From: Lentimicrobiaceae bacterium
Lineage (GTDB): Bacteria > Bacteroidota > Bacteroidia > Bacteroidales > UBA4417
Reading direction: 5' to 3'
Assembly: GCA_041660125.1 (NCBI GenBank)
Contig: JBAZWY010000012.1
Coordinates: 38,499-102,498, forward strand
DNA length: 64,000 nucleotides
Positions within the stretch are counted from its first letter, which is position 1, and the number at the start of each line of letters is the position of its first letter. Position numbers and translations under genes: made by a program. Shown here one piece after another: positions 1-36,902 of the stretch. The notes beneath the pieces were generated by a model. It had not been told where the DNA came from, did no database searches, and saw nothing but the letters and a program-made list of their open reading frames with translations.

Positions 1-1
1 G

Positions 2-388
2 GATATTGATTTCAGCTTCCTCTACATAGAAGCAGTACTTCGCAAAACCGGAGTAAAAATTCTGTGGGCTCAAAATGGCCGCGAAGCCGTTGAGCATGTT
101 AAAACTAATCATGACATCGACATCGTACTGATGGATATGCACATGCCAATAATGAATGGATATGAAGCCTCAGGACTTATTTCAAGCCTCAGGCCAGGTT
201 TGCCTATCATTGCTCAAACAGCATTTGTGCTCCCTGACGATGTGAAAAAATGCTATGCATCTGGTTGCACAGGATACCTTGCAAAACCAATTCGCAAGGA
301 GCAATTGCTGGGTACATTGTCAGAATACTTTGACAAAATGGAACATCACGAAGAAGCTTTGCCTTTATATAAGGTTAGCAACGGATAG
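2..388 (+). CDS. Receiver (REC) domain, C-terminal end of a larger two-component protein cut by the left window edge
   Basis: Frame 2 is open from base 2. The translation ...HDIDIVLMDMHMPIMNGYEAS...GYLAKPI shows REC hallmarks: acceptor Asp in LMDMHMP and conserved Lys in AKP. Stop at 386-388. Confidence 0.75.
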   Translation, partial: DIDFSFLYIEAVLRKTGVKILWAQNGREAVEHVKTNHDIDIVLMDMHMPIMNGYEASGLISSLRPGLPIIAQTAFVLPDDVKKCYASGCTGYLAKPIRKEQLLGTLSEYFDKMEHHEEALPLYKVSNG

Positions 389-532
389 AACTTTTTAGCA
401 GGTAATTTCCGGTCACAGTTTACGTTCTGTTATTCAGTAACTTAGTGAATATAGTAGCTGCTTGTGGCTACACATTTGCACGATCTTTATTAAGAGTTAT
501 CCCTTATTGATTGCAATAATTAGTATGATAAA

Positions 533-563
533 TAAAAAAAACCCTGCATATGCGGGGTTTTTG
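533..563 (+). terminator. Rho-independent terminator after the REC-domain gene
   Basis: A-run, stem ACCCTG (541-546) / CGGGGT (553-558) with one G-U pair, 6-nt loop, then TTTTT. Confidence 0.55.
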
Positions 564-605
564 GGTTGAGTAATACGGTAATCATCTGATAAACGGAAAA
601 GTATT

Positions 606-815
606 CAAGGGTTCAAATGCCTCCAGTGTTTAAATACTGTTCGTTCAAATGTTCAAGCTTCAAAATTCCCTGCCTGCTGATGCAGTCAGGCAGGAAATGC
701 CTTTGGCGTTCAAATGCTGTACGTTCAAACATGCCTAAGGCTGGTTGTTATTCAAATGTTGTGATCTAAAAGTCATGAATCCTGAACCTGTAACACTGTA
801 ACACAGTAACACTGC
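606..815. repeat. Cluster of GTTCAAATG-like words plus an 8-bp hairpin and a (C)TGTAACAC x3 tract
   Basis: gttcaaatg-like words at 611, 643, 708, 723 and 751. Hairpin CCTGCCTG (669-676) / CAGGCAGG (687-694). ctgtaacactgtaacacagtaacactg at 788-814, directly downstream of the amidase stop. Confidence 0.7.
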
Positions 816-818
816 AAA

Positions 819-2492
819 TCATTTAAAAAGTGGAGGCTGCTGGTTATCATGATCTGTTGCATCCTGGTACATTTTTGCAAAAGCCAGCAACACTGCCTCA
901 TCATAGAGGTTGCCGATAAAACTGATGCTCGTTGGATGGCCTTTTTTATCAAATCCGTTAGGAACAACTACACATGGATTTCCGGTCAGGTTCGTAAGCA
1001 GCGATTGATTCCCGGCAAAACTTGGTGTGATAATTACATCATACTGTTTCATTACGGCATACATTTCCTGGATGAGTTTATAACGCAAGCGGTTTGCCTG
1101 TATGTACTGTACAGCCGGTATAAACTGTGCTGCGCGAAAAATATTCGGCCAGGCATTTTTGTCTTGTAGGTTCAACTCATCATCTTTATTTGTGCGCGTA
1201 AGGTCATCAAAAGCAGCGGCAGCTTCAGCAACAAGGATAATGGCCAGCGAATTTACCGGAATAGTAGCTGAATCGGGTAAGCTAACAGCAGTGAAGTTTA
1301 TTCCCATGTTGTGGATTTCGGAAAGTGAAATACTATCGTTTGCCCGGTTCTCGTCATCCTTTTCAAAAAGTGATTTAAGATATCCGACTTTCAGTTTTTT
1401 AAAGTCAATGGATGAATTGTAGTTAAACGGGTAGTCAGTCACGGATTGGTCGAAACCATCGGAACCAAGTAGCGAATTGAATACCAATGCGCAATCGAAA
1501 GCACTGCGGCAGATAGGGCCGACTTTATCCATGCTCCAACTTAACGCCATGGCTCCTGTGCGGCTTACACGTCCGTATGTTGGACGCAAACCTGTTACAC
1601 CGCAACGTGTGCTGGGCGAAACAATCGATCCCCATGTTTCGGTTCCAATGGCAAATGGAACCAGTCCTGCCGCGGTGGCAGCTGCCGATCCTGCCGAAGA
1701 ACCACTTGAGCCTTGGTTTAAATCCCATGGGTTGCGGGTAAGTCCTCCAAACCATACATCATCCATTGCCAGTGATCCGAGTGAGAATTTTGCAAGCAGA
1801 ATTGCACCAGCCTCTTCAAGTTTTTTAACCACGGTGGCGTTTCCCACGCGTGTCTGGTCTTTATAAGGTGCTGCTCCCCAGGTGGTTTTATACCCTTCAA
1901 CAGCAAACAAGTCTTTTATTCCGTAGGGAATTCCATGCAAAGGGCCGTGGTTAATACCCCGTGCCAGGTCTGCATCTGCTTTCTGAGCCTGTTTCATGGC
2001 GAGTTCTTCGGTAAGTGTAATTACACAATGCAGCGTGTCGCCATATTTCTTAAGCCGGTCTAGGAAAAACCTGGTAAGTTCAACTGAGCTTATTTTACGG
2101 GTATGTACCAATACCGAAAGATCAGCAACTGAATACCAGGCAAGCTCGTTTTTTTCAGCAGGCATGGCAACATTGGCCGGAAGGTTCCAGTCAATTGGTT
2201 TTTGTGTCTGGGTGTACACTACTCCCGCAGGCACCGGGTTAAACCAGACTGCCGGAGGTACTGAATTATCGATATCCTGGCTATGGATTTTTTTGTAATC
2301 GCCCAGCTGGCTTTCGAGCGTGGTGATCATTGAATCGCGCTCTTTGGCATCCATCGTTAAGTCAAAAAGCTTTTCGGTGGCTGAGACAAGGTTAGGATTA
2401 ACTGCTTCTTTTGAGGATTGGTTTTTGCAACCGGCCAGTGAAATAATTCCGATTGCCATGGCGAAAAAAACATTGAGTAAAGGGATCTTCAT
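819..2492 (-). CDS. Amidase-signature family lipoprotein
   Basis: 557-aa ORF. Signal peptide with lipobox LAGC. Amidase signature region GSSGSSAGSAAATAAG and upstream GIPYGIKD. Confidence 0.85.
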   Translation of the reverse strand: MKIPLLNVFFAMAIGIISLAGCKNQSSKEAVNPNLVSATEKLFDLTMDAKERDSMITTLESQLGDYKKIHSQDIDNSVPPAVWFNPVPAGVVYTQTQKPIDWNLPANVAMPAEKNELAWYSVADLSVLVHTRKISSVELTRFFLDRLKKYGDTLHCVITLTEELAMKQAQKADADLARGINHGPLHGIPYGIKDLFAVEGYKTTWGAAPYKDQTRVGNATVVKKLEEAGAILLAKFSLGSLAMDDVWFGGLTRNPWDLNQGSSGSSAGSAAATAAGLVPFAIGTETWGSIVSPSTRCGVTGLRPTYGRVSRTGAMALSWSMDKVGPICRSAFDCALVFNSLLGSDGFDQSVTDYPFNYNSSIDFKKLKVGYLKSLFEKDDENRANDSISLSEIHNMGINFTAVSLPDSATIPVNSLAIILVAEAAAAFDDLTRTNKDDELNLQDKNAWPNIFRAAQFIPAVQYIQANRLRYKLIQEMYAVMKQYDVIITPSFAGNQSLLTNLTGNPCVVVPNGFDKKGHPTSISFIGNLYDEAVLLAFAKMYQDATDHDNQQPPLFK

Positions 2493-2552
2493 ATCAAATT
2501 GTTTTAAAATGGATTAAACTAATCTAAAAGCCAAAAAGGAGCTTTGGGAATT

Positions 2553-2560
2553 CAAATGTA
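2553..2560 (-). promoter_or_regulatory. Candidate Bacteroidota -7 box (TACATTTG on minus strand) upstream of the amidase gene
   Basis: Plus-strand caaatgta is the reverse complement of TAnnTTTG, about 60 nt upstream of start 2492. Confidence 0.35.
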
Positions 2561-2624
2561 GGAATTTATTAGGTTAGAAGGAGTGGAATAAATTATAGGT
2601 CAAAAATAATTAATTGCCAGAAAT

Positions 2625-2650
2625 GAAAAAACCTCTTGCGATGCAAGAGG
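2625..2650 (-). terminator. Terminator hairpin following the pseudo-tRNA
   Basis: Stem CCTCTTGC (2632-2639) / GCAAGAGG (2643-2650). On the minus strand it is followed by TTTTTT. Flanks are identical to those of the terminator after the real tRNA-Pro. Confidence 0.55.
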
Positions 2651-2662
2651 ATTTTCATTTTG

Positions 2663-2749
2663 TCGGGGTAGTAGCCCCGCCGCTGGCGGGGGAACCTACG
2701 ACCCCCTGGTCCCAAACCAGGAGCCCCGCCGTGGCGGGGCTATACCGCA
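2663..2749 (-). pseudogene. tRNA-Pro-derived pseudo-tRNA with D-arm and T-loop replaced by GC hairpins
   Basis: Aligns base-for-base with tRNA-Pro at 3031-3105 over the acceptor 3' strand, T-stem, variable loop and anticodon stem-loop. T-loop GAATC is replaced by CCCCGCCAGCGGCGGGG and the D-arm by CCCCGCCACGGCGGGGCT. The 5' acceptor strand is mutated. Confidence 0.65.
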
Positions 2750-2988
2750 GTAATTAATCGTTTGAATGCTTGCCCACCTTTGTAGCTTTTTATTTGTTTC
2801 TCTCTGATCAAAGCTTGTTGTTTATCGGTAAACTCTTCGGTATAAACGATTATGAAAGGAATTCTTGATTTTGTAGATCGTTGAAGTCCTGCATTATGAA
2901 AAGCTAATCGACTCTGAACATCATGAGTGGATCCGATGTAATATTTACCATCTTTTTCACTTTGAAGTATGTAAACGAAATATGCCAT
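2740..2988 (-). CDS. GIY-YIG nuclease-domain small protein
   Basis: 82-aa ORF beginning MAYFVYILQSEKDGKYYIGSTHDV (GIY...YIG motif). The stop codon TAG lies inside the pseudo-tRNA 5' end. Confidence 0.85.
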   Translation of the reverse strand: MAYFVYILQSEKDGKYYIGSTHDVQSRLAFHNAGLQRSTKSRIPFIIVYTEEFTDKQQALIREKQIKSYKGGQAFKRLITAV

Positions 2989-3000
2989 AGGAAGAAATGA

Positions 3001-3026
3001 AAAAAGCCGAATTAACGGCTTTTCAT
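3001..3026 (-). terminator. Weak terminator hairpin after tRNA-Pro
   Basis: Stem AGCCG (3005-3009) / CGGCT (3016-3020), followed by a T-run on the minus strand. Confidence 0.4.
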
Positions 3027-3030
3027 TTTG

Positions 3031-3105
3031 TCGGGGTAGTAGGATTCGAACCTACGACCCCCTGGTCCCAAACCAGGTGCGCTAACCGGACTGCGCTATA
3101 CCCCG
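3031..3105 (-). tRNA. tRNA-Pro (anticodon UGG)
   Basis: The reverse complement folds as a 75-nt cloverleaf: CGGGGTA-TA-GCGC-AGTCCGGTTA-GCGC-A-CCTGG-TTTGGGA-CCAGG-GGGTC-GTAGG-TTCGAAT-CCTAC-TACCCCG-A. No encoded CCA. Confidence 0.95.
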
Positions 3106-3378
3106 AGTCAATAATTTCTGGGATTTTACCTGGTCCCAAACCAAGTGCCCCGCCGTGGCGGGACTATACCCCGAGTCAATAATTTCTGGGATTTTACCTG
3201 GTCCCAAACCAGGTGCCCCGCCGTGGCGGGACTATACCCCGAGTCAATAATTTCTGGGATTTTACCTGGTCCCAAACCAGGTGCCCCGCCGTGGCGGGAC
3301 TATACCCCGAGTCAATAATTTCTGGGATTTTAACTGGTCCCAAACCAGGTGCCCCGCCGTGGCGGGGCTATACCCCGA
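3061..3378 (-). repeat. Tandem array, exact 68-bp period, about 4.7 copies, of the tRNA-Pro 5' half plus upstream flank
   Basis: Unit starts at 3061 (genuine tRNA), 3129, 3197, 3265 and 3333. Units 3197 and 3265 are identical and 3129 differs by one base. The extra units carry the GC hairpin TCCCGCCACGGCGGGGCA in place of the D-arm. Confidence 0.9.
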
Positions 3379-3383
3379 ACTAT

Positions 3384-3752
3384 TTAATCAATCTTTCCGT
3401 TAAAACTCTTATACATTCCCAGCAGCATTTTTGAAATCCGCTCGTAGTTATCATATAACTCCTGGTAAGTAACGGCTTTAATTCCGTTGGTGGATTTCAC
3501 CAGGTCAAGCAGGGATGAACATTCAAAAATATATCCCCTGGAAAGGGTAATCAAATCTTTTTTCTCAATACTGTTTACTCTTGCCGATGCCTGAACCAGG
3601 TTCATAACAGCCAGCAACATCGCATTCTTCCAATGATCATGGATTTGGCGATCCATCTGGTCATCTTGCCTGAGCATCAACATCACTTTGTTGTGCTGTT
3701 CTTTCATAAGTTGGTAAACCTCTAACTTTTCGAAATCAAACATTTCAGGCAA
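3384..3752 (-). CDS. Four-helix-bundle protein (23S rRNA intervening-sequence protein family)
   Basis: 122-aa ORF whose N-terminus FEKLEVYQ is typical of this family. Predicted all-helical. The stop lies 6 nt from the last tRNA-like unit. Confidence 0.7.
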   Translation of the reverse strand: MPEMFDFEKLEVYQLMKEQHNKVMLMLRQDDQMDRQIHDHWKNAMLLAVMNLVQASARVNSIEKKDLITLSRGYIFECSSLLDLVKSTNGIKAVTYQELYDNYERISKMLLGMYKSFNGKID

Positions 3753-3783
3753 AAAAAACGATAATTTTAAACTTTAAAAGAAC

Positions 3784-3799
3784 TGGCGGAGAAAGGGGG
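3784..3799 (-). other. Isolated tRNA 3'-end fragment (T-stem 3' strand, acceptor 3' strand, G, CCA)
   Basis: The minus-strand read CCCCCTTTCTCCGCCA shares 14 nt (3786-3799) with the 3' end of tRNA-Ser at 18545-18558. No remaining cloverleaf is present. Confidence 0.4.
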
Positions 3800-3929
3800 C
3801 TCCATAAAATTCCCTCTGTATCGCTTATGAATAAAGGATTTAACGAATTTGGGAACTGTTACGTCCACCGATTAAACCACGGTAATTTTTTCACCAAATT
3901 GCTTTGCAATGAACTTCCTTGCGAGGCGG

Positions 3930-3937
3930 CAAAGATA
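3930..3937 (-). promoter_or_regulatory. Candidate -7 box (TATCTTTG) for the minus-strand transcript entering the four-helix-bundle / tRNA-Pro cluster
   Basis: Plus-strand caaagata. The same octamer sits upstream of the trp leader (35546) and the DUF5916 gene (32162). Confidence 0.35.
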
Positions 3938-4506
3938 GTATTTAAAAGCGAATTCCAAAGAAATATGATGTAATGTTCGAAAATAATTAAAAATACTAAC
4001 TTTTCATCATTATAATATGCATCAATTTAGCATATGGTGAAACATTTGTAAAACATTTGTGAAACAACTAATAAGACCCTTTTGAAATTGGAAATCATGG
4101 ATTTAGCAGTTGAATTGCATTCGTTTATAGGCATTGCGATTAAATTCCTACTGCTTCCATCACTAAAAGCATTGAAAAATACCAATTTTAATGACCCGCA
4201 GCCTATAGGACACCGGGTCATAAACAGCATATTTATTACAATAATTTATAAACTGCTTATCCGTTTTAAACAAGTTGTAAGGGTTTTAAGTGGTTGGTTT
4301 TATAGAAATGATTTAAGAACAAGGATTAACGATTTAAGATTTTAGATGTACATCATTGATTTAGCGAAACTTCGAAAATCAAAAATCGATGTTCCTTGTT
4401 CGATATTCAAAAGAAATATCCTTAACAAAATGACATTGACCCAAAGGGGGATTCCTTTTTCTGTAATTTCCCAAAAACTGTTTCAGCACTATAACAATAA
4501 ATCAAA

Positions 4507-5608
4507 ATGAACATTGGCGAAATACTCATCTATCAAAATCCGGAAGGCAGCATCAAAGTTGATGTTCGGCTTGAGGAAGAAACGGTATGGCTCACACAGG
4601 AGCAAATGGCTATCCTTTTTGGAAAAGCCAGGAATACCATCACCGAACACATTCAAAATGTTTTTAAAGAAGGCGAGTTGGACGAAAAAGTGGTATGTCG
4701 GGATTTCCGACACACCACTCAACATGGCGCTATACAAGGAAAAACGCAGGAAATATCTGTAAAATATTATAACCTCGATGTTATTATTTCGGTAGGTTAT
4801 CGTGTAAAATCTCAACAAGGTACTCAGTTTCGCCTCTGGGCAACTCAAAGACTGAAAGAATATATCGTAAAAGGCTTTGCTTTAAACGACGAACGCTTTA
4901 AATCAGGCACTTCGCTGAATTATTTCAACGAACTGCAGCAGCGCATCCGCGAAATCCGCTTATCCGAACGTTTTTTCTATCAGAAAATAAAAGATATTTA
5001 CGCCACCAGCATCGATTATAACCCAAAGGACGAAAAAACGGTAGAGTTTTTTAAAATCGTTCAGAACAAACTGCTCTGGGCCATTTCGCAAAATACGGCA
5101 GCCGAATTGGTGTATCGCCGGGTTGATGCTTCACTACCCCTGCTCGGTATGCAGTCATTCGACAAAACCGGTACCAAAGCCATCGCTAAATCCGATGTAA
5201 ATATTGCCAAAAACTATTTGAAAGAGGATGAAACGAGCCATGCCAATAAATTGTTGCACAGGGTGATGGTTATTCATGGCGAGTTCCATGTGACCCGTAA
5301 AAATTAAGAAATAATCACATGAAATAAAACTCCTTGGATTGCTGGTAGAACAATACCTGGCCTTTGCCGAAACTATGGCACAGCAACAATCTCCTATGTA
5401 TATGCACGACTGGATTGCCCGTTTGGATAGCATTCTGCAATTAAATGGCCGCGAATTGCTCACCCATACTGGCAAAATCAGTCATGATTTAGCTTCGCAA
5501 AAATCAGCATTGGAATACGATAAGTTTAAAGCAACTCAAAATCTGCTCGAAAAAGAGCAAAGCCTGAAAGAGATTGAGGAAGATATAAAGAAACTGAAGA
5601 AGCCATAA
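4507..5608 (+). pseudogene. RhuM-family (virulence/defence-island associated) gene, interrupted by a 91-bp insertion
   Basis: The N-terminal part (frame 1, 4507-5232) reads MNIGEILIYQNPEG...NIAKNYLKEDE. The C-terminal part (frame 2, from 5324) continues IKLLGLLVEQYLAFAE...PMYMHDWIARLD...GKISHDLA. Joining across 5233-5323 restores one continuous RhuM-like protein. Confidence 0.8.
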
Positions 5609-5790
5609 ACCATTAGCTTGTAAAGTATTCTTTCCCCCCGCTGGCATATGTTTGAACGCACGACACTGCTATATCTCCGATACTGCCCTATGGGAATCTA
5701 AAGGCGCGTTTATAAAGCGTGTCGGTATAATTTCCTTCCTGCCTTCCTTCAGTTTTAGCACATTTGTATGTCTTTCTGCTTTACAGGATA

Positions 5791-6435
5791 TTATTTTTCA
5801 GTTCTCTTTTCCATTAAAACATATGTCACAATATGTAGAGCAGTTTTACCTCTTATTTCAAAGGTTTTAATTTCAAGAATGTCAAAGTATAAACTAAAAA
5901 GTTTTCTCAATTCATCCTCCGACGAAAAATACAGTATAGTACCAAGCTGAGTTTTTCTGTATTTTCCTGAACCGCCAAATTGGCCATCTTTCTCGTTGAA
6001 GCAAACAGATAAATATCTACCTCCCGGGTTAATAAGACACTGCATGTTTTCTAAATATTTATTCCTATTCTCTGGATATATGTGGTGTAACAACTCCCAG
6101 TCATAAGCGAAATCATAAGTTTTATCAACTTCTTTTTCCAAATCACCAAGAACATCAGCTCGCAGAAAGTCGCATCTCACTTTTTTATCTTTTGCATTCT
6201 TCTTTGCATACTTTATAGCCGATTCAGAAATATCAACACCAGTCACGGTAAATCCTTTGCCGGCAAGATAAACCGCATAATTACCAGCGCCACAACCTAA
6301 ATCAATAACAGTACAGGGTTTAATCTTACCACTTTCAATCAATTGTATTAAAGCATCAGGAGGGTTTTCAATATTCCAGGGAATTTCTTTCAATGGAATA
6401 TTACTGTATATTTCATCAGTCTCAGTTTGTTTCAT
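5791..6435 (-). CDS. Class I SAM-dependent methyltransferase
   Basis: 214-aa ORF with SAM motif I VIDLGCGAGNYAVYLA followed by an acidic loop GVDIS. Confidence 0.8.
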   Translation of the reverse strand: MKQTETDEIYSNIPLKEIPWNIENPPDALIQLIESGKIKPCTVIDLGCGAGNYAVYLAGKGFTVTGVDISESAIKYAKKNAKDKKVRCDFLRADVLGDLEKEVDKTYDFAYDWELLHHIYPENRNKYLENMQCLINPGGRYLSVCFNEKDGQFGGSGKYRKTQLGTILYFSSEDELRKLFSLYFDILEIKTFEIRGKTALHIVTYVLMEKRTEK

Positions 6436-6494
6436 ACCTCAAAATTTATCATTAAGTATAATTCATATTCAACGACGTTAAAGTTACTAAATAA

Positions 6495-6716
6495 CTCCCT
6501 CTGATTTCCTATTCCACGTATATTACCGAACTGCCAAAAAAGAAAGTAAAACTATCCCTTACTGATGAAGCCGAATGGGAAGCCTACTTTTTGCAGGAAG
6601 CTAAACAGGCGCTTGCTATAAAATCCGAAATCGATAAAACCGATAAAGAAATTGACCGGATGGTTTACGACCTTTACGGCCTGACCGAAGAAGAAATCAA
6701 AATAGTGGAAGGTTAA
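6495..6716 (+). pseudogene. C-terminal tail fragment of a restriction-modification-type DNA methyltransferase/endonuclease
   Basis: The open frame has no start codon and ends ...IDRMVYDLYGLTEEEIKIVEG*. That ending is characteristic of type IIG / TaqI-like-specificity-domain enzymes. Only about 73 codons remain. Confidence 0.5.
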
Positions 6717-6726
6717 TACTTAACAC

Positions 6727-6909
6727 TTAATTATACTGAAAACGGGATAAATTTCCGCATTCATTAAGTCCCAAATTCCAAATCCCAAATTCCAAATTCC
6801 AAGCTCCAAATTCCAAGCGGTGATACAGATTGGGTCTTGGTTCTTGGGATTTGGGACTTGGGTCTTGGTTTTTTGAATGCGTGATTTTACCCCACTCTAA
6901 GTATAATTC
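6727..6909. repeat. About 180-bp imperfect palindrome with low-complexity CCAAAT/CCAAG arms
   Basis: The left arm ttaattatactgaaaacggg..ccgcattcattaagtcccaaattccaaat... mirrors the right arm ...atttgggacttgggtcttgg..ttgaatgcg..ccccactctaagtataatt. The centre is near 6830. Confidence 0.75.
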
Positions 6910-6917
6910 TCTAAATC

Positions 6918-7097
6918 ATGAAGATTCTGCCTATTTTAACTTCTTGTGCGATGCGAATGGAGCATAAACACTTACAACAATTGCGTTCCGAAACTTTACT
7001 TTCCCTCCTCAAAGTGGAGCGTGAAAACAATAAAAAACCCATTCCGGTTAATAAAAATTTTACTGTAGTTCAGATGATGAATGACATGCAATTTTAA
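6918..7097 (+). CDS. Hypothetical 59-aa ORF (below the track cutoff)
   Basis: ATG at 6918 and TAA at 7095-7097. No recognisable motif. Confidence 0.15.
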   Translation: MKILPILTSCAMRMEHKHLQQLRSETLLSLLKVERENNKKPIPVNKNFTVVQMMNDMQF

Positions 7098-7309
7098 GTC
7101 TATCTGGTAACCATTTATTTATACTTAAAGGGCTATCCATTTATAATCTTGAACATCAAAAAAATATTTTTTTAAAACATTGAACTTAATAACTATGGAA
7201 CTAAACTTAAATATTCATGAAAACAGGAAGCCGACATCGTTTTGCATGATACGGTTATTAGGGGTATCCAAGGGTGACTTTGAGTCTTGCCGTGACTAAT
7301 TGGAAAACA

Positions 7310-7336
7310 GAAAAAGCCGGATTCGTCCGGCTTTTT
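7310..7336. terminator. Bidirectional rho-independent terminator (ends the adhesin-OmpA unit on the minus strand)
   Basis: Stem GCCGGA (7315-7320), loop TTCG, stem TCCGGC (7325-7330), flanked by an A-run and a T-run. Confidence 0.7.
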
Positions 7337-7407
7337 CTGTAACAAAATGATTTGATAAAAGGTTGTTTCATAAGGACAACCTGACTATCCTGTTTCGAAT
7401 TCAGGCG

Positions 7408-8871
7408 TTAATTACTATCTTTCACGAGTTTTAATACCACTCTCCTGTTTTTCACCCGGTTTTCGGTGGATGTATTAGGTACCAATGGCTCATTATACGC
7501 TTTACTTATGGTTTTCATTCTTTCAGATGGAACGCCATCCTTAATTAAAAGCTGCTTCACAGCACTGGCCCTTCTTTTACCAATTCGGACATTTACTTTA
7601 TAAGAACCCTTATCACATGTATAACCAAACAGATACAAAGTAATGTCAGGATTTGCTGTTAAAAAATCATTTAAAGCGCGTACGTCTCCCTTATGTGATA
7701 TTATAGGTTGCCTGGAGTTAAGCCTGAAATTGTATTTAAATGACTCTGCAATGTTTTGGGCAGCCTGCAATTTAGCTTCTGAGTCGTCAACCGGTGTAAC
7801 AACTTGTTCTACAATAACCGGTGTAACAACTTGTTCTACAATTGCTGGTTTCTGATTCTGTATTGGCTGTGAAGAAGGAACAACTGAAACCTGTACTTCC
7901 TGCGCTTTGACTGCCTGAGGAACTATTTCTTCTGCCTGAGGAACTATTTCTTCTGCCTGAGGAACTATTGCTTCTGCATGAGGAACTATTTCTTCTGCCT
8001 GAGAAGTTGCGGCTGGCACCTTGGGGTTGAGTTTTTCTTTAAGCAAATTCAAATACAATCCAACTTTAACTCCGAATGCCACCGGCAGAACCTTTTTCAC
8101 CTGGTCCGAAATAAAAACGCCATTGTAAGTTCCATCTTGTTCTGAAACCGATTGATTATCGGGTGTCAGCACGTTATTCAATCCGTAATTAAAATATCCG
8201 CCCAAATATAAATCTTTCTTCTCGCTCAATTTAATCAATCCTCCAACATCGGCAATGGCAATATAAGCTGTTTTTAATGTGTAATTGCCTTTGTATTTAT
8301 TGGTATTGGTGCCAAATCCATACTGGGGCATTTCGCTCAGTTCGACATTCCACTGCGGGTAATAACCTTTGGTTACAATTTGCCCATTGGTAGTTTTATA
8401 GGCAGTACTAACCGGGATCGAGATTTTTGCGCCAACTGAAGCCAGCAGACTGAACTTTTGTCCTACACTATACCGGTACTGTCCAACCAATGGAATATCA
8501 ACAAATAAGGTTTGTTGTTTTTCCTGCCAGTTTTGGTAGGCTGTCCCCAATTCGAAAGCATCTCCATCGGTATCGAAGGCCGGGGAGGTTGTGGATAAAT
8601 TGAGCGTGGATGATCCGTTGAAGGATTGAATGCCTACTCCCGTCTGAAGCCCCCATTGAGGTGAAAAAAAGTAGCTGTAAGCCGCATTTACGGAGTATCC
8701 GAACTGTCCTTTCTGGGTTCCGTTCTGAAGGTTATACGATAGATTGTTCAAACCTCCGCCAATATTGAAATGCAGGTATTGGCCGGGTTGCTGCGCTTTT
8801 AGTGAAACCATTGCCAGCAATGCTAATCCTACTATGATGTGTCTTTTCATTTTCGTTGTTGTTATTTTCAT
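7408..8871 (-). CDS. OmpA-family outer-membrane protein (N-terminal beta-barrel, repeat linker, C-terminal OmpA domain)
   Basis: 487-aa ORF with a signal peptide and a barrel-like alternating pattern. Linker repeats are AEEIVPQ x4 and IVEQVVTPV x2. The C-terminal OmpA-like motif is ...RRASAVKQLLIKDGV...NRRVVLKL. Confidence 0.85.
   Translation of the reverse strand: MKITTTKMKRHIIVGLALLAMVSLKAQQPGQYLHFNIGGGLNNLSYNLQNGTQKGQFGYSVNAAYSYFFSPQWGLQTGVGIQSFNGSSTLNLSTTSPAFDTDGDAFELGTAYQNWQEKQQTLFVDIPLVGQYRYSVGQKFSLLASVGAKISIPVSTAYKTTNGQIVTKGYYPQWNVELSEMPQYGFGTNTNKYKGNYTLKTAYIAIADVGGLIKLSEKKDLYLGGYFNYGLNNVLTPDNQSVSEQDGTYNGVFISDQVKKVLPVAFGVKVGLYLNLLKEKLNPKVPAATSQAEEIVPHAEAIVPQAEEIVPQAEEIVPQAVKAQEVQVSVVPSSQPIQNQKPAIVEQVVTPVIVEQVVTPVDDSEAKLQAAQNIAESFKYNFRLNSRQPIISHKGDVRALNDFLTANPDITLYLFGYTCDKGSYKVNVRIGKRRASAVKQLLIKDGVPSERMKTISKAYNEPLVPNTSTENRVKNRRVVLKLVKDSN
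7790..8003 (-). repeat. In-frame tandem repeats inside the OmpA linker (27 bp x2; 21 bp x about 4.4)
   Basis: accggtgtaacaacttgttctacaata at 7790-7816 and 7817-7843. ctgcctgaggaactatttctt units start at 7911, 7932, 7953 and 7974, with a partial unit at 7995. Confidence 0.9.
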
Positions 8872-8935: not shown

Positions 8936-11900
8936 TCATTGCCGTACAACGATTTTAAACACATAATCAATTCCATTCCGGGATGTAACATGGCCGATGT
9001 AAACCCCTGAAGCAGCAGGTAAATTCATCAGGTTCAGATTAGTAACCTCTTTGGTTTGATAAACACGAACTCCCTGGATATTGAAGACCGTCAATTCTGA
9101 ATTTTTAAGTTCTTCATCTGAAAAACCGAAAATATTAACAGTGCAGACCTCATCCGCTTTCATTGGGTTAGGATAAGCAAATACCTTTTTAGGTGTTGGA
9201 ATATTCAATCCTTTGCCGCAGGAAATCAGCGTTTGTCCATCGATAGTTACTACTTCCAGCGAATAAACTCCAACCCTTCCATCCGGATCGCAATAGAATT
9301 GCTTAGTAGCTCCATCTATTTTCACTCCGTCCTTGTACCACTGATAAGCTGTAAAACGTTTGCTGCTGTTATCACATAGCACAACATCCTCAAACTTATC
9401 AATAATATAATCCGAAGAAAGATTAATGCTGAAACTGAATGTATATTCAGGACTCTCCAATCCAAATTCATTTCTAATTCGTAAGGTTCCCTGGTAGGAT
9501 CCTTCGCGTGTTCCTTTTGGAATTGGAATCTGGATCACTCCATTGTTGGACGTTGAAGGCATACTGGTATAGCTTACATTCTGAATACCAGCTGCAAGAG
9601 CAGCTTCGTTGAATGTAATCTTATATTCAGCCGATGATCCTGAAACAATTGTATAGCCTAATTCCAGGTCCGAGCCTTCGCAACCAGCCGCAGGAGTAAT
9701 TACAGGACTTAGAGCAACATTATCTGAAATATTAGCTCCGTTAATCACAAAATTGGCAGGCACAATGTAATTACCCTTTGCACTGCCGCTAAGCGAATAA
9801 ACCACGGTTATGGTTTTGTTTGTTCCTACATTTGCATCGGCGTAATCAGCTTTGGCAGCCAGGATCACATTGTCAATGTCCGATGCTACAACTCCTTGAA
9901 GACTTCCATTTGAAGTTATTACAGCAGTTGTATTCCCGTCAACAAATTTGTTTGTAACTACTACAGTATTTAATACTGTTAATGACTTAGCAGTAATATT
10001 TGCTTTCAACCCGGTCGGCTGTGTCAGCATGTAATTGGCAATATCAGTTCCGGAAATTGTCATGGCTGAAGTAACTTCGATATCGGTTCCAACACCAGCC
10101 TGGGCAAATGTTCCGGTAGCGGGATCTGACAATATAACGTTTTCTGTTCCGACAACACCAGCAAGAGTTGCTCCTTTAATTGCAGCTATCGTTGTTCCAT
10201 CGTAAACTTTATTCGTTGCAGCAGCAGTGTTTACCCTGAGTTCTTTAGCGGTAATATCTGCCTTCAATCCAGTTGCCTGAATCAGTGTGTAATTGCTGAT
10301 ATCAGCACCGGAAATTGTCATGGCAGGGGTAACATCAATACCTGTTCCAATACCTGTCTGGGCAAAGGTGCCTGAAGCATAGTTTTCAAGAAAAACATCA
10401 TCAGTACCGACTACAACGGATAAGAGTGCTCCCGTTATGGTTGCATCTGTGTTGCCGTCATAGACTTTATTCTCAACCTTTGCTCCGGATATCGTTAGTT
10501 CCGCTTTTGTAACAGCGAAGTCGGCGGCCACATAGGTTATATCGTAATTGTTATCCGTTCCTGGACTTAATGTGATGGCATTGGTGTACGTTCCAAATCC
10601 TGTAGTCTGATCTACTGTAGTGCTCGCTGTGGGTTTCGTTTCCAGTACGCTTTCCGTATCGCCGTTTTTCCAGCCATTATATTCGAACGTTAGTTCCGGG
10701 TTTGCTTTGCCATATACCTTGGTCTGAGAATCGGCAGTTACAGTCAGCATGGCTTTGGTTACTTCAAAATCGTTAGTCACATAGGTGAAATCGTAATTGT
10801 TATCTGCTCCTGAACTTACGGTGATGGCATCGGTATATGTTCCAACTTCTGTAGCCAGGTCAACGCTTGTGACTGCTGTAGGTTTGGTATCCAAAACACT
10901 TTCGGTATCATTGTTTTTCCAACCACTGTATTCGAGCGTCAGTTCCGGGTTTGCTGCGCCATATCCTTTGGTTTGTGAATCAACGGTAATGGTCAGCATG
11001 GCTTTAGTAACTTCAAACTCGTTAGCAACATAAGTGAAATCGTAATTGTTATCTGAGCCTGAACCTGCTGTAATTGCATCTGTATAGGTGCCAACTTCCG
11101 TGGTCATATCAACAGTTGTACTTGACACAGGTTTGGTATCCAAAACACTTTCGGTATCATTGTTTTTCCAGCCACTGTATTTGAAAGTCAGTTCCGGGTT
11201 TGCTGCACCATATACTTTGGTTTGTGCATCAGTGGTAATCGTCAGCATAGCTTTGGTAACTTCAAACTTATTAGCCACATAAGTGAAATCATAGTTGTTA
11301 TCTGAGCCTGAACCTATTTTTATTGCATCGGTATAGATTCCAACTTCCGTGGTCAGATCTACGATTGTACTAGCGACGGGTTTGGCATCCAGTACGCTTT
11401 CTGTTTCACCGTTTTCCCAGCCACTGTATTTGAAGGTTAATTCCGGATTGACTTCGTCATATACTTTAGTTTGAGCATCAGAGGTTACGGTAAGCATTGC
11501 TTTGGTGATCTGCAGAGTTATTAAAGTGCGGCTTACGCTAACGCATTCTGTAACAGAATTTCTTGCTTCCGCGTAGGCTGAATATGTGCCGACATTTGTG
11601 CCGGATGGCGCTGAAATAGTAATTCCCCCGGAAGGTACTTCGTACCAGTCAATAACTATACCGTCTGCGACTGTTGCAGAAGCTGTTTTTTCTGTTCCAT
11701 CATAGGTATAAGAATTAATACCTGCTGTGGGTTCGGCCGGCGCAGGGTTCACTATAACAGTAAAAGCCTTTTCATAGGTTAAACCTCCCTGGTCGGTTGT
11801 GTGGACACGGACTGAATAACTACTCTTCGTTTCGAAATCCGGGCTATCAGTAATTCGTAAACTATTTCCGCTGATAGTACAGGAAGCATTATCGGTATCC

Positions 11901-14900
11901 CCGCTGCCGGTTACAAGCGAATAAGTGAAAGAATCGGCCACATCAGGGTCTGTTGTGCTTAATGTTCCTACTGTGGAGTTGGCTGCTACATTCTCGTTGA
12001 TGGTGCTGTTCGACAAGGCCATGTCGGTGGGCGTCTCGTTTACGTCATTCAGGTTTACCGTTACGATTTGGGAGGCAGAGGTATGTAGGCCATCGTTTAC
12101 AGTTACAGACAAATAGAGTGAGGCAATGGTTTCATGATTGAGCGCTGCAGAGTTATTAACTGTAATTACCCCGGTAGATGGATTAATTGCAAATGCATTG
12201 CCTGTATTGCCTGCAGCAAGTGTCCAATCCTGGAATACAGTGCCATAATCAGGATCTGTAGCCAAAACCTGACCAACAGTTGTACTATTGGCAGAGTTTT
12301 CGTCAATGGCAAAAGATTGAGAGGCTGTAATTACAGGATTTTCATCATTAACTCCATCTACTACTATTAATACTGTTTGAGATAAACTTGTATTTGTTCC
12401 ATCGGATACTGTCAACGTTAACGTAAAATTTGGGTTAACAAATGGATTTAGCACTGTATTATCAACTACTGTTATTACTCCAGTTGATGAATTTATAGCA
12501 AAATATCCATCGCTATTACCTGCAGTAATTGTCCAATTTTGAAAAGTTGTTGCGGTGACGTCTCCATCAGTAGCTAAAGCAGTTCCAACGGTTGTTCCGT
12601 TTGGTAATTGTTCTGTAACATGTAATATCAGCGCGGCGGTTAATACCGGAGCTACATCATTAACGTCATTAAGGTTAACAGTCACTATTTGGGGGGTAGA
12701 GGTATTTACACCATCACTTACAGTTACTGTGAGGCTAAATGATGATACCAACTCACGATTAAGCACCGAAGAGTTGTTTACTGTTATATTACCTGTAGCA
12801 GCATTTATTGCAAAGGCATCGCCGGTATTGCCGCCAGTGATTGTCCAGCTACTAAATGTGGTTCCCACATCGCCATCGGAGGCACCCACGATGCCAATAT
12901 TAGAACTGTTGGCAAGGTTTTCGTTGATGGTGAATGTCTGAGCGGCTGAGATTTCAGGAACTACATCGTTCAAATCGTTTATGGTAATGGTAAACGCTTT
13001 TTCATACGTTAGGCTGCCCTGGTCGGTGGTGCGGATACGTACCGAGTAACTGTTCTTTGTTTCAAAATCCGGACTGTTGGTTATCCGCAAACTGCTTCCG
13101 CTGATGTTGAAGTAAGCATTATCGGTACTGCCGGTTCCGGAAACAAGAGTGTAGGTAAAAGTATTTCCGGTATCTTGATCAGTTGAACTTAAAGTTCCTG
13201 CAGTTGTGTTGGCTGTAACATTTTCATTAACAGCACTGGCTGATAAAGCTATGTCGCTTGGTGCGCCATTTACCGTTATCTCAACCGTTATCGGCGTTCC
13301 GGAACAACCATTCAGTAATGGAGTAACGATGTAATTTACAACACCATTACCCGTAAGTGTCTGAGCTATAGTAGTTCCCGAACTGGCTGAAGTGCCATTT
13401 ACTGTTCCTCCTGCTGTGGCTGTTGTCCAGGTGAAAGCTGAACCTGTTGGCGCAGAAGTCAGTGCAATACTTGTTGCTACTCCGCTATTGATAGCTGCTG
13501 AAGACGGAGTAGCTGTTGCCACTGGATTTGGTTTTACCATTATGTTGTAAACAGTAGTAGTGGTAGCAGCGGAACAACTATTAACGTCGTTATAGTTAAC
13601 GCTTACAGTCTGGGCTCCTGCTGTATTCCATGTAACGTTGATGTCATTGGTGTTAGTGCCGGTAGTAATGGTTCCACCTGCCGAAACGTTCCAGGTATAG
13701 TCTGTCATTCCTGTAGCTGTTGAATACACATTACCAGTGGATGTCATACATGTGCTTGCCGGACCTGTGATTGTAGGAACTATAAGTGGGTTAACTGTGA
13801 TCGGCACCGTGATCGGAGATCCTGCACAACTATTCAGCGTTGGCGTTACCGTGTAGTTTGCAATTCCATTGCCTGAAAGTGTCTGGGCAATCGATGTTCC
13901 TGAACTTGCCGAAGTTCCGTTTACTGTTCCGCCTGCTATTGCTGCGGTCCATGCGAAAGATGCACCTGTTGGTGAAGAAGTCAGGGCAATATTGGTAGCT
14001 GTTCCGCTGCAGATAGCTGCTGAAGACGGAGTAGCTGTTGCAACTGGATTTGGATTTACAGTTATTGCTACAGTAATCGGTGATCCTGTGCATCTGTTCA
14101 GCGTAGGTGATACCGTGTAGTTTGTAACTCCATCACCCGAAAGAGTCTGGGCAATAGATGTTCCTGAACTGGCGGAAGTTCCGTTTACTGTTCCGCTTGC
14201 CGTTGCTGCGGTCCATGCGAATGATGAACCGGTTGGCGAAGAAGTCAGGGCAATATTGGTTGCTGTTCCGCTACAGAGAACCGCTGAAGACGGTGTAGCT
14301 GTTATAGTTGGATATGGATTTAACATTACACCAACAGTTATTGGGGAACCAGCGCAACTGTTCAGCGTTGGTGTTACCGTATAGTTGGTAACTCCATTGC
14401 CTGAAAGAGTCTGGGCAATAGATGTTCCTGAACTGGCCGAAGTTCCGTTTACTGTTCCGCTTGCTGTTGCTGCAGTCCATGTAAAAGATGCACCTGTTGG
14501 TGAAGAAGTCAGGGTAATATTGGTTGTTGTTCCGCTACAAATAGCTGCTGAAGACGGAGTAGCTGTTGCCGTTGGAGTTGGGTTAATGGTAAATTTAAAG
14601 GTCTTAGGGGTACCAACAAACTCTGCAGTTAACCCACTGTTGATTCTGAAATTATCCACCAGCAAGCCTGAGTTTGTTTCGGAATCATATCCGTTTAATG
14701 GAAGCAAGCCTATAGTATATGTTCCGGCGCTGAGGAAAGTATATGTAAACGTTTTGTAGCCTGTCTGATAAATATCATTTCCCGGATTTCCTGCAATCGT
14801 TATAAAATCTGAGTTGTATGTACTGGCCAGCATTGTAAGCCCGTTGCCTGAGATAGATAACAAAGCTGCATCCCATTGACTGGGTATATTCTCTGTAGTT

Positions 14901-36056: not shown

Positions 36057-36812
36057 ATGCAAACAGCCGAACGCAGCTCCGGGCACGATCCTTCAGAACA
36101 GGTAATTTACAACAGGTGCCTTTATGCCTACAAGGCTGCTTCAGAATTAGTAAAAGGCAATATTATTGAACTTGGAAGCGGCGAAGGTTATGGTATTAAA
36201 ATGCTGGCTCCTTTGGCTCAACATTACCTTGCTGTCGATAAATTTGATACCGATATTTCGGGCCATGCCAATGTGGAATTTCGTAAACAATTATTGCCTT
36301 CTTTGGCCGGTATTGCTGATAATACATTTGATTTCGCGGTTACTTTCCAGGTTATTGAGCATATACAGGATGATAAAACTTTTATAAAGGAAATACACCG
36401 GGTACTTAAACCAGGTGGCGTTTTAATGCTTACCACGCCAAACCATCCGATGTCGCTAACCCGCAATCCATGGCATATCCGCGAATATACTGCTGATGAA
36501 CTGGCTTCGGTTGTTGGTAAAAGTTTTGGTAAAGTGGAGGTGAAAGGCGTATTTGGTAGTCCGGTTGTAATGGACTACCATGAAAGAAATAAAACTTCGG
36601 TTCATCGCATTACAAGGTTTGATATTTTAAAATTGCAATACAGGCTTCCGCGCCGGCTGTTGCAAATACCCTATGATATAATGAACCGGCTTAACCGCCG
36701 CAAATTGCTGAAAGGCAATACCGATATTGTGAATAAGGTTTCACTTTCCGATTTCTTTCTGAAAGGTACTACTGATAACTGTTTCGATTTGTTTGTTGTG
36801 GCTACGAAATAG
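36057..36812 (+). CDS. Class I SAM-dependent methyltransferase
   Basis: 251 aa. Motif I IIELGSGEGYG and post-I DKFD. LKPGGVLMLTTPN is typical of the Methyltransf_11/23 class. Confidence 0.8.
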   Translation: MQTAERSSGHDPSEQVIYNRCLYAYKAASELVKGNIIELGSGEGYGIKMLAPLAQHYLAVDKFDTDISGHANVEFRKQLLPSLAGIADNTFDFAVTFQVIEHIQDDKTFIKEIHRVLKPGGVLMLTTPNHPMSLTRNPWHIREYTADELASVVGKSFGKVEVKGVFGSPVVMDYHERNKTSVHRITRFDILKLQYRLPRRLLQIPYDIMNRLNRRKLLKGNTDIVNKVSLSDFFLKGTTDNCFDLFVVATK

Positions 36813-36902
36813 AAAATGGGGAAATAGAAAATGGGGAAATAGGGAAATAGGGAAATAGGGAAATAGGGAAATAGGGAAATAGGGAAATAGGGAAATAGGA
36901 AA
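36805..36902. repeat. Microsatellite-like tandem repeat: 14-bp unit x2, then GGGAAATA x about 8
   Basis: aaatagaaaatggggaaatagaaaatggggaaatagggaaatagggaaat... It begins in the last codons and stop of the methyltransferase gene. Confidence 0.9.

Follow-up and report, generated by a model that had tools for sequence, protein, structure and literature searches.

The 64,000-nt window analysed here (contig JBAZWY010000012.1, positions 38,499 to 102,498, from a Lentimicrobiaceae bacterium) carries an intact tRNA-Pro(UGG) gene preceded by a tandem array of truncated copies of that gene, and in each copy a GC hairpin stands where the D-arm should be. Window coordinates are used throughout. The composite lies entirely on the minus strand, and orders are given in the sense of the tRNA. 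Read that way the locus consists of a four-helix-bundle open reading frame (ORF), four hairpin units, tRNA-Pro, a terminator, a GIY-YIG nuclease ORF, a pseudo-tRNA-Pro and a second terminator (Table 1). A preliminary description of the window, made from the sequence alone, saw the array. It missed the GIY-YIG gene and the pseudo-tRNA at 2663-2749, and with the latter two of the six hairpins.

Over 3061-3378 Tandem Repeats Finder detects a 68-nt period, with 4.7 copies, 94% matches, no indels and a score of 550. ARAGORN and Rfam agree on an intact tRNA at 3030/3031-3105. The three programs bear out the earlier claim of an exact 68-bp tandem array beside an intact tRNA-Pro(UGG). As assembled, four extra units stand upstream of that gene. 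By alignment each is made up of the 5' acceptor strand CGGGGTATAG, an 18-nt GC hairpin in the D-arm slot, the anticodon arm and a 22-nt spacer TAAAATCCCAGAAATTATTGAC. Where the tRNA reads TAG-CGCAGTCCGGTTAGCGCA-CCTGG the units read TAG-TCCCGCCACGGCGGGGCA-CCTGG, which swaps 18 nt for 18 nt. The preliminary description had called this an equal-length replacement that random decay does not produce, and we judge it correct on both counts. It was also right that the frames starting at 3197 and 3265 are identical, with a single base separating 3129 from them. The real tRNA is frame 3061, and it departs from the other frames at 10-11 positions, all within the D-arm. One statement has to be narrowed. 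The anticodon stem-loop was said to be kept in every unit, and this holds for two of the four extra units; the proximal and distal ones each have a single-base change in the stem (CTTGG and CCAGT respectively). The anticodon loop is intact in the window units.

The units cannot be tRNAs. The alignment gives them no T-arm and no 3' acceptor strand, and within window positions 1-8000 neither the units nor the pseudo-tRNA are called by ARAGORN, or by Rfam at E<=1. Over the same interval and threshold no Rfam family of any kind covers the units, and in 20 related loci Rfam matches only genuine tRNAs. The array is not CRISPR either. There are no unique spacers between units, the entire 68-bp unit being what repeats, and there is no cas-like ORF among the ORFs within 1-6500. 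Both points had been made before and both stand. Two further candidate roles were rejected. As a terminator, only the C-to-T unit passes a loose scan, and the tract downstream is not U-rich. As a promoter inside each unit, the 22-nt spacer, read from the sequence, lacks a TAnnTTTG box.

The pattern CCCGCC-N1-6-GGCGGG occurs six times in the window against 0.00 expected from shuffles, with loops of 2-3 nt. All six copies are in tRNA-Pro-like contexts, four in the array and two outside it, and the flanks of related loci agree. The hairpin is tied to tRNA sequence, as the preliminary description held, and is not a scattered repetitive extragenic palindrome (REP).

The two hairpins outside the array belong to the pseudo-tRNA. 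Its D-arm is replaced by GCCCCGCC-GT-GGCGGGGC (2723-2740) and its T-loop by CCCCGCC-GCT-GGCGGGG (2675-2691), and its acceptor stem has one mismatch. Hairpins therefore stand on both sides of the GIY-YIG gene, these two on one side and four copies at 3147-3368 on the other. The same two-sided arrangement at the nuclease gene is found in five related loci (L001, L008, L090, L095 and L096). Gene and pseudo-tRNA are fused at the junction: in the pseudo-tRNA the 5' acceptor strand and U8-A9-G10 coincide with the final codons and the TAG stop of the ORF, and this junction is kept in L002, L004, L005, L082 and L090. The Pfam match spans residues 3-68 of the 82-aa protein, which has no second domain and no DNA-binding domain. 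The ORF sits behind the first terminator without room for a promoter of its own. As a separate observation, the two terminators (2625-2660 and 2995-3030) share the flanks CAAAATGAAAA ... TTTTTTCATTTCT and differ in their cores. Here too the hairpin alone looks exchanged, as in the tRNA arms.

Table 1. Features of the tRNA-Pro composite, from upstream to downstream in tRNA sense.
Feature	Position	Strand	Evidence or remark
Four-helix-bundle ORF, 122 aa (23S_rRNA_IVP family)	3384..3752	-	Pfam PF05635, E 2.6e-8; TIGR02436; directly upstream of the array
Unit U5 (distal)	3310..3380	-	5' acceptor strand, hairpin 3351-3368, anticodon arm, 22-nt spacer; hairpin CCCCGCC..GGCGGGG as in the pseudo-tRNA
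Unit U4	3242..3309	-	Hairpin 3283-3300 (TCCCGCC-AC-GGCGGGG); identical to U3
Unit U3	3174..3241	-	Hairpin 3215-3232
Unit U2 (proximal)	3106..3173	-	Hairpin 3147-3164; one anticodon-stem substitution (CTTGG)
tRNA-Pro(UGG), intact	3031..3105	-	ARAGORN; Rfam RF00005, 71.2 bits
Terminator-like stem-loop (intrinsic type), after tRNA-Pro	3001..3024	-	12 nt ahead of the GIY-YIG start codon
GIY-YIG nuclease ORF, 82 aa, single domain	2740..2988	-	Pfam PF01541, E 3e-16
Pseudo-tRNA-Pro, full length	2663..2749	-	Alignment and sequence; hairpins in D-arm and T-loop positions
Second terminator-like stem-loop, after pseudo-tRNA	2632..2650	-	Flanks as in the first terminator, stem-loop core different

Related loci and copy number

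Relatives were gathered in two ways. A protein search over one genome per species, using the window GIY-YIG protein, gave 80 loci selected by protein only. A DNA-pattern search of metagenomes, using the hairpin plus the tRNA-Pro acceptor strand with the nuclease gene left out of the query, gave 34. It must be noted that gathering loci by the nuclease or by the hairpin biases these samples of context; the unbiased sample is the 64-kb window plus a few kilobases around each locus only.

The closest relative in the protein set is a Lentimicrobiaceae metagenome-assembled genome (MAG) whose nuclease is 85% identical. A same-strand tRNA lies within 150 nt of the ORF in 33 of the 80 loci and in 26 of the 40 closest, and 63 of 66 tRNAs are on the strand of the nuclease gene. 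Direct repeats flank the nuclease ORF in about 45 of the 80, and where inspected the repeat is a second copy of the neighbouring tRNA with GC hairpins at D, anticodon or T positions. At the Bacteroidota loci the tRNA is always Pro, and the D-arm of the second copy is replaced by CCCGCC-loop-GGCGGG. Elsewhere (Patescibacteria, Omnitrophota, a planctomycete MAG, Thermodesulfovibrionales and others) the neighbouring tRNA is Tyr, Ser, Asp, Glu or Asn, and related hairpins replace the anticodon arm or sit inserted in the D or anticodon loop. L001-L009 have the CCCGCC-type stem in common, and in their 5-kb flanks the perfect GC hairpins are located at the tRNA/GIY site. The swap in L009 is likewise equal in length, 17 nt for 17.

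Some loci have peculiarities of their own. Five Patescibacteria-type loci (L010, L011, L012, L014 and L016, at about 2400-2500, or about 480-590 in L012) have a double or multiple hairpin in the D-loop or anticodon loop, of the form CCACCGCC-loop-GGCGGGG followed by TCCCGCC-loop-GGCGGGA. In these the hairpin-bearing, truncated tRNA copy is just upstream of the nuclease ORF and the intact tRNA comes after it. L032 has two pseudo-tRNA-Asn copies, 2412-2488 and 2750-2826, that differ by a compensatory hairpin change, CCCGCC/GGCGGG against CCCGCA/TGCGGG. A second hairpin type, TCCCGA-loop-TCGGGA, was noted with L032 and also occurs in L005, L037 and L088.

The pattern search finds mimic units upstream of an intact tRNA-Pro (UGG, CGG or GGG) in many Bacteroidota contigs, with 1 to at least 4 units per locus. 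Several contigs have the complete composite of mimics, tRNA-Pro, nuclease gene and pseudo-tRNA. The nuclease gene is beside tRNA-Pro in 14 of the 34 loci, absent in 11, and the contig is too short to say in 9. Unit periods, taken from spacings, are 36, 51, 58, 65, 68, 69, 74, 81, 91 and 101 nt across lineages. The point in the tRNA where the unit ends is specific to each lineage. Viral contigs searched with the same pattern gave zero matches.

One can imagine that the array is an assembly artefact, a repeat collapsed or expanded in assembly from a biological copy number of one. Short-read assemblers do mishandle 68-bp tandem repeats, and arrays lie at contig ends in L087, L091, L099 and L103. 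However, a Joint Genome Institute (JGI) metagenome contig, Ga0208789_1000872, encodes an identical nuclease protein at the same locus with 3 units instead of 4. With 3 units in independent assembly (L001/L104), the array does not collapse to a single one. Arrays of 2-3 units lie wholly inside long contigs in L089, L095, L096, L106 and L115. An artefact is extremely improbable.

L001/L104 has in addition 2 tandem modules with a 368-bp period, where the module is the terminator, the nuclease gene and the pseudo-tRNA. Unit and module numbers are both variable because that independent assembly has 3 units and 2 modules. L095 likewise has 2 nuclease modules. Unit number differs among close relatives as well, 1 in L098 against 2 in L106, and 1 in L092 against at least 2 in L087. 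Comparing array length between strains had been put forward as a check, and copy number does differ among these relatives. The array is real and its copy number is dynamic; it does not come from one faulty assembly. Two side observations belong here. The tandem duplication of the nuclease-plus-pseudo-tRNA module is seen in two unrelated contigs (L001 2947-3705 and L095 6092-6790, in tRNA-sense orientation). In L041 (1500-2600) the nuclease gene that follows a 3-unit array seems disrupted, with its N-terminal codons at about 1540, the rest at 2501-2599 and unrelated sequence between.

Conservation of the hairpin

In a set of 39 distinct D-position hairpins, 34-38 have the same base pair at any given core position of CCCCGCC/GGCGGGG. 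The loops of these hairpins are 2-4 nt and hypervariable, with about 27 different sequences. The core shows no compensatory changes in this set; the outermost pair alone alternates, between C-G and T-A, with T-G also seen. A stem fixed in sequence with variable loops and no core covariation is the signature of a sequence-specific protein site. Judged on these alignments the conservation pattern is that of a protein recognition site, and not that of an RNA conserved for shape only or of an anticodon-loop decoy. The nuclease ORF compared with that of L002, an 85%-identical relative, has a nonsynonymous rate (dN) of 0.09, a synonymous rate (dS) of 0.92 and dN/dS of about 0.1. By this ratio it is under purifying selection.

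Consider the scenario in which all of this is neutral debris. A partial duplication of the 5' half of the tRNA would have expanded by slippage, and the hairpin would be inert and recognised by nothing, simply inherited and homogenised by gene conversion. The units within an array are indeed identical or almost so, their number varies among close relatives, and some copies are visibly decaying (L002, L096, L109 and L113). Debris does not explain why the same 7-bp stem is found across tRNA-Pro UGG, CGG and GGG loci while the loops differ. The stem persists in lineages where identity in the nuclease and four-helix-bundle proteins has fallen to 40-70%. L002 retains the hairpin despite a dS at which synonymous sites are near saturation, and related hairpins occur in other phyla, at other tRNAs, beside the same gene family. 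We consider neutral debris unlikely.

Another line of reasoning would place the function at the RNA level. Units in the leader of pre-tRNA-Pro would yield small structured RNAs serving as decoys, processing modulators or nuclease guides, with the hairpin as a clamp in the RNA or a handle for a protein. In relatives the Bacteroidota -7 box TAnnTTTG is just upstream of the first unit only, so the units would be transcribed as part of the pre-tRNA leader rather than each from its own promoter. This puts them within the tRNA primary transcript. Predicted folds of the units as RNA are stable at -27 to -30 kcal/mol (z about -3), the window units have an intact anticodon loop, and the outer hairpin pair occurs as C-G, T-A and T-G. 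Against this, the unit ends at a different point of the tRNA in each lineage, and the anticodon part is truncated or decayed in seven loci (L002, L008, L041, L083, L095, L112 and L115). A purely structural RNA would not keep its stem in sequence without covariation. The lack of any Rfam family match and the lack of RNA binding by the characterised Ssn enzyme (PMC11893778), introduced below, both count against a function in RNA. We regard an RNA-level role as distinctly unlikely.

The roles proposed in the preliminary description can now be sorted. Anticodon-stem-loop decoys or processed small RNAs are unlikely given periods of 36-101 nt, an anticodon arm that is often decayed and a stem that is conserved. 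Amplified promoter modules are unlikely with the promoter box before the first unit only. The remaining proposal, recombination or homing targets, comes closest to the comparative evidence.

A candidate nuclease and hairpin cassette

Ssn proteins are single-domain GIY-YIG enzymes of about 94 aa that act as site-specific nucleases on single-stranded DNA (ssDNA) (Chenal et al. 2025, Nat Commun 16:2388, PMC11893778). They bind hairpin repeats flanking their own genes, called NTS in Neisseria and Ssn-related motifs (SRMs) elsewhere, and they cut the same strand upstream of the hairpin, leaving double-stranded DNA (dsDNA) and RNA untouched (PMC11893778). A repeat is near 71% of ssn genes and on both sides of 42%, and the authors liken the arrangement NTS-ssnA-NTS to an insertion sequence (IS); tRNA is unmentioned in their paper (PMC11893778). 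A literature search found no follow-up publications to it.

The window locus resembles this system in several ways. At 82 aa its protein is a single-domain GIY-YIG nuclease of the 80-95 aa class, within the limit of about 100 aa used for Ssn. Short GC-rich palindromes stand on both sides of the gene, as the hairpin-forming repeats of 20-50 nt do at Ssn genes, clustered and with further copies elsewhere, and the repeat-gene-repeat layout resembles an IS. The window hairpins share the stem core CCCGC/GCGGG with Neisseria NTS (TTCCCGCG..GCGGGAA) and with SRMs, and canonical SRMs flank distant homologues of the window protein. Unlike SRMs the window hairpins lack the GTCAT and TCCAG flanks. A further difference is that they sit in tRNA-derived sequence where they replace a tRNA arm, and the module has an intact tRNA gene inside it.

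The reading we prefer is that the array would be the amplified upstream arm of a GIY-YIG nuclease cassette at tRNA-Pro, the hairpin its cognate DNA hairpin and the tRNA pieces the duplicated target. We put this at somewhat better than even, roughly 0.55. The anatomy, the variation in copy number, the recurrence across lineages, the link to the GIY-YIG gene and the way the hairpin is conserved are observed, whereas hairpin recognition by the nuclease, action on ssDNA and mobility are inferred. By analogy, the hairpin CCCCGCC-N2-4-GGCGGGG is most likely a palindrome that travels with this nuclease subfamily and acts as the Ssn hairpin repeats do. The proposed sequence of events is as follows. 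The palindrome would fold when the locus becomes single-stranded in replication, transcription or DNA uptake. The small nuclease, whether adjacent or acting in trans, would bind the folded hairpin and cut close by. The tRNA pieces would be target sequence duplicated when the cassette took up its place within or beside the tRNA gene. One tRNA copy would stay intact because the cell needs it, and the remaining copies would bear the hairpin. Direct repeats could then recombine, possibly stimulated by nicks, so that the 68-bp unit and the 368-bp nuclease module expand or contract. The first mimic may have come from deletion of an upstream cassette (cassettes of the kind seen in L003 and L101) or from direct insertion of the hairpin.

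Several results weigh against the cassette. The published SRM consensus, HGTCWYN(0-2)YYVSBRHN(0-5)WNVSBRGN(0-2)RNCYNB, has 0 matches in 2655-3385 even with 2 substitutions permitted; the same expression finds canonical motifs flanking the proteobacterial distant homologues L060, L062, L070, L078 and L079. The window protein forms a subfamily apart, marked by the C-terminal motif IKSYKGGQAFKxLI. Compared with the SRM-flanked homologues it shows 35-42% identity and 53 bits, and it is about equally distant from UPF0213 proteins of known structure such as BH0048 (40-51 bits). The 11 hairpin arrays with no adjacent nuclease gene still have perfect stems, and therefore a trans-acting copy or some other selective force must be assumed. 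No occupied/empty-site pair similar enough to fix the ends of the element was found, so the case for mobility comes from distribution only. Finally, the model does not account for the exact placement of the hairpin relative to the tRNA arm or, here, for its exact length. Small hidden Markov models of Ssn-type and UPF0213 proteins tie on the window protein. On present evidence, then, the locus would work like an Ssn/hairpin module, a judgement by analogy, and placement in the published Ssn family (cd10448) is not established.

A GIY-YIG gene among tRNA genes also recalls a classical free-standing homing endonuclease. In phage T4 the GIY-YIG homing endonuclease SegB is encoded within a tRNA cluster, and in mixed infection it causes the flanking tRNA region to be inherited preferentially (PMC2330249). 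On that model the window nuclease would cut tRNA-Pro as dsDNA in naive genomes and be copied in by break repair, while the hairpins would immunise the element's own tRNA copy and reduce deletion by recombination. Besides the T4 precedent, the ORF is placed behind a terminator with no promoter room and has tRNA-derived homology on its flanks, and in both systems flanking tRNA sequence travels along with the gene. However, SegB has no hairpin repeats or hairpin-substituted tRNA copies, and it is phage-borne rather than chromosomal. SegB, which cuts dsDNA, is also the larger protein and includes a DNA-binding part. The window protein is an 82-aa catalytic domain alone. The adjacent intact tRNA would stay open to cleavage, changes that confer immunity would not have to arrive at a single conserved palindrome in different phyla, and arrays persist where there is no nuclease gene. 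No gene-less (empty) allele of the nuclease locus was found. We find SegB-like homing very doubtful.

tRNA genes are common integration sites and partial tRNA copies are a known by-product of integration; the paper concerned treats only integrases and CRISPR as origins of such fragments (PMC9897764). Repeated integration and excision of islands at tRNA-Pro might in principle have left tandem partial copies as accreted attachment (att) sites. This precedent and a RhuM-family gene 1.1 kb from the array end are what speaks for it, and as in att-duplicated islands one intact and one partial tRNA copy flank the inserted gene. The copies are of the wrong kind, though. What lies upstream of the tRNA is 5' parts and not 3' ends, and 300 bp downstream there is a complete copy. 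The insert is one 249-bp ORF, and among the ORFs of 1-6500 none next to the tRNA resembles an integrase. The units follow one another at 68 bp without intervening sequence, and the replacement of an arm by a palindrome goes unexplained. We give att-site accretion almost no credence.

Two other known systems deserve comparison. REPs and bacterial interspersed mosaic elements (BIMEs) with their RAYT transposases (IS200/IS605-like) are also short conserved, clustered palindromes, and the small nuclease that recognises them, as ssDNA hairpins, has its gene between the copies. RAYT, however, has the HUH Y1 fold and not GIY-YIG, and REPs are scattered intergenically where all six window copies are tRNA-Pro-like. 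In type III toxin-antitoxin systems the ToxI antitoxin RNA likewise consists of short structured repeats in tandem, with a terminator and a nuclease gene downstream. A ToxI-like array was set aside here, since the unit number is 0-1 in most relatives and the array is separated from the gene by a functional tRNA. The nuclease is moreover GIY-YIG, DNA-directed where tested, and not a ToxN-like RNase.

A broader proposal can be made. The loci could form a class of mobile cassettes resident in tRNA genes, in which a minimal GIY-YIG nuclease, a distant relative of Ssn, recognises a hairpin and, by itself or through the repair that follows, puts it where the D, anticodon or T arm had been. The cell would survive because a second, intact tRNA is regenerated, and the hairpin copies would serve as ends, landing pads and recombination substrate. 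This is tentative and we would not bet on it. No description of tRNA-resident nuclease/hairpin cassettes was found in the literature on COG2827, YhbQ/UPF0213 or GIY-YIG with pseudo-tRNA or tRNA-like sequences.

Together with this locus, more than 100 related loci in several phyla point to a second setting for small GIY-YIG nucleases, one linked to tRNA genes. The characterisation of single-domain members with cognate hairpin repeats dates only from 2025. The 82-aa protein and the 68-nt unit are a testable pair of enzyme and site that could widen the set of site-specific ssDNA nucleases. The composite also explains a class of "odd" tRNA-Pro calls, partial or low in score, in the genomes of Bacteroidota. 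It is a source of structural variation beside an essential tRNA gene, where both the 68-bp unit and the nuclease module vary among close relatives.

Neighbouring genes and other repeats

Homologues of the four-helix-bundle ORF with 38-100% identity occupy the same position in L001, L002, L005, L041, L087/L092, L108 and L113 (at 1938-2297 in L002, 1950-2303 in L005 and 867-1211 in L041). Its linkage to the mimics and tRNA-Pro(UGG) would be old because the ORF is only 38-44% identical in some lineages. An exact-protein look-up returned no record. The 23S_rRNA_IVP family is encoded within intervening sequences of 23S rRNA and is related to the Avd proteins of diversity-generating retroelements. 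Such a retroelement was considered because of the Avd-like ORF and set aside, as there is no ORF of reverse-transcriptase size beside it among those of 1-6500. That this ORF belongs to an intervening-sequence family may point to a shared tendency to insert at hairpins in genes for structured RNAs.

The RhuM-family "virulence protein" ORF is at 4507-5307 on the plus strand (Pfam E 6e-76), about 1.1 kb from the array end and about 750 bp past the four-helix-bundle ORF. It may mark a variable region.

The window has other repeats away from the tRNA. At 6749-6884 blocks of 7-nt repeats (CCAAATT and TTGGGTC) are inverted and form a long imperfect hairpin, for which Rfam gives only weak, chance-level matches to plant microRNAs. 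Long tandem repeats lie at 10527-11506 (249 nt, 3.9 copies) and 13812-14569 (264 nt, 2.9 copies); at a guess, these may represent repeated domains of large surface proteins. At 36806-36899 there are 12 repeats of the 8-nt unit GAAATAGG.

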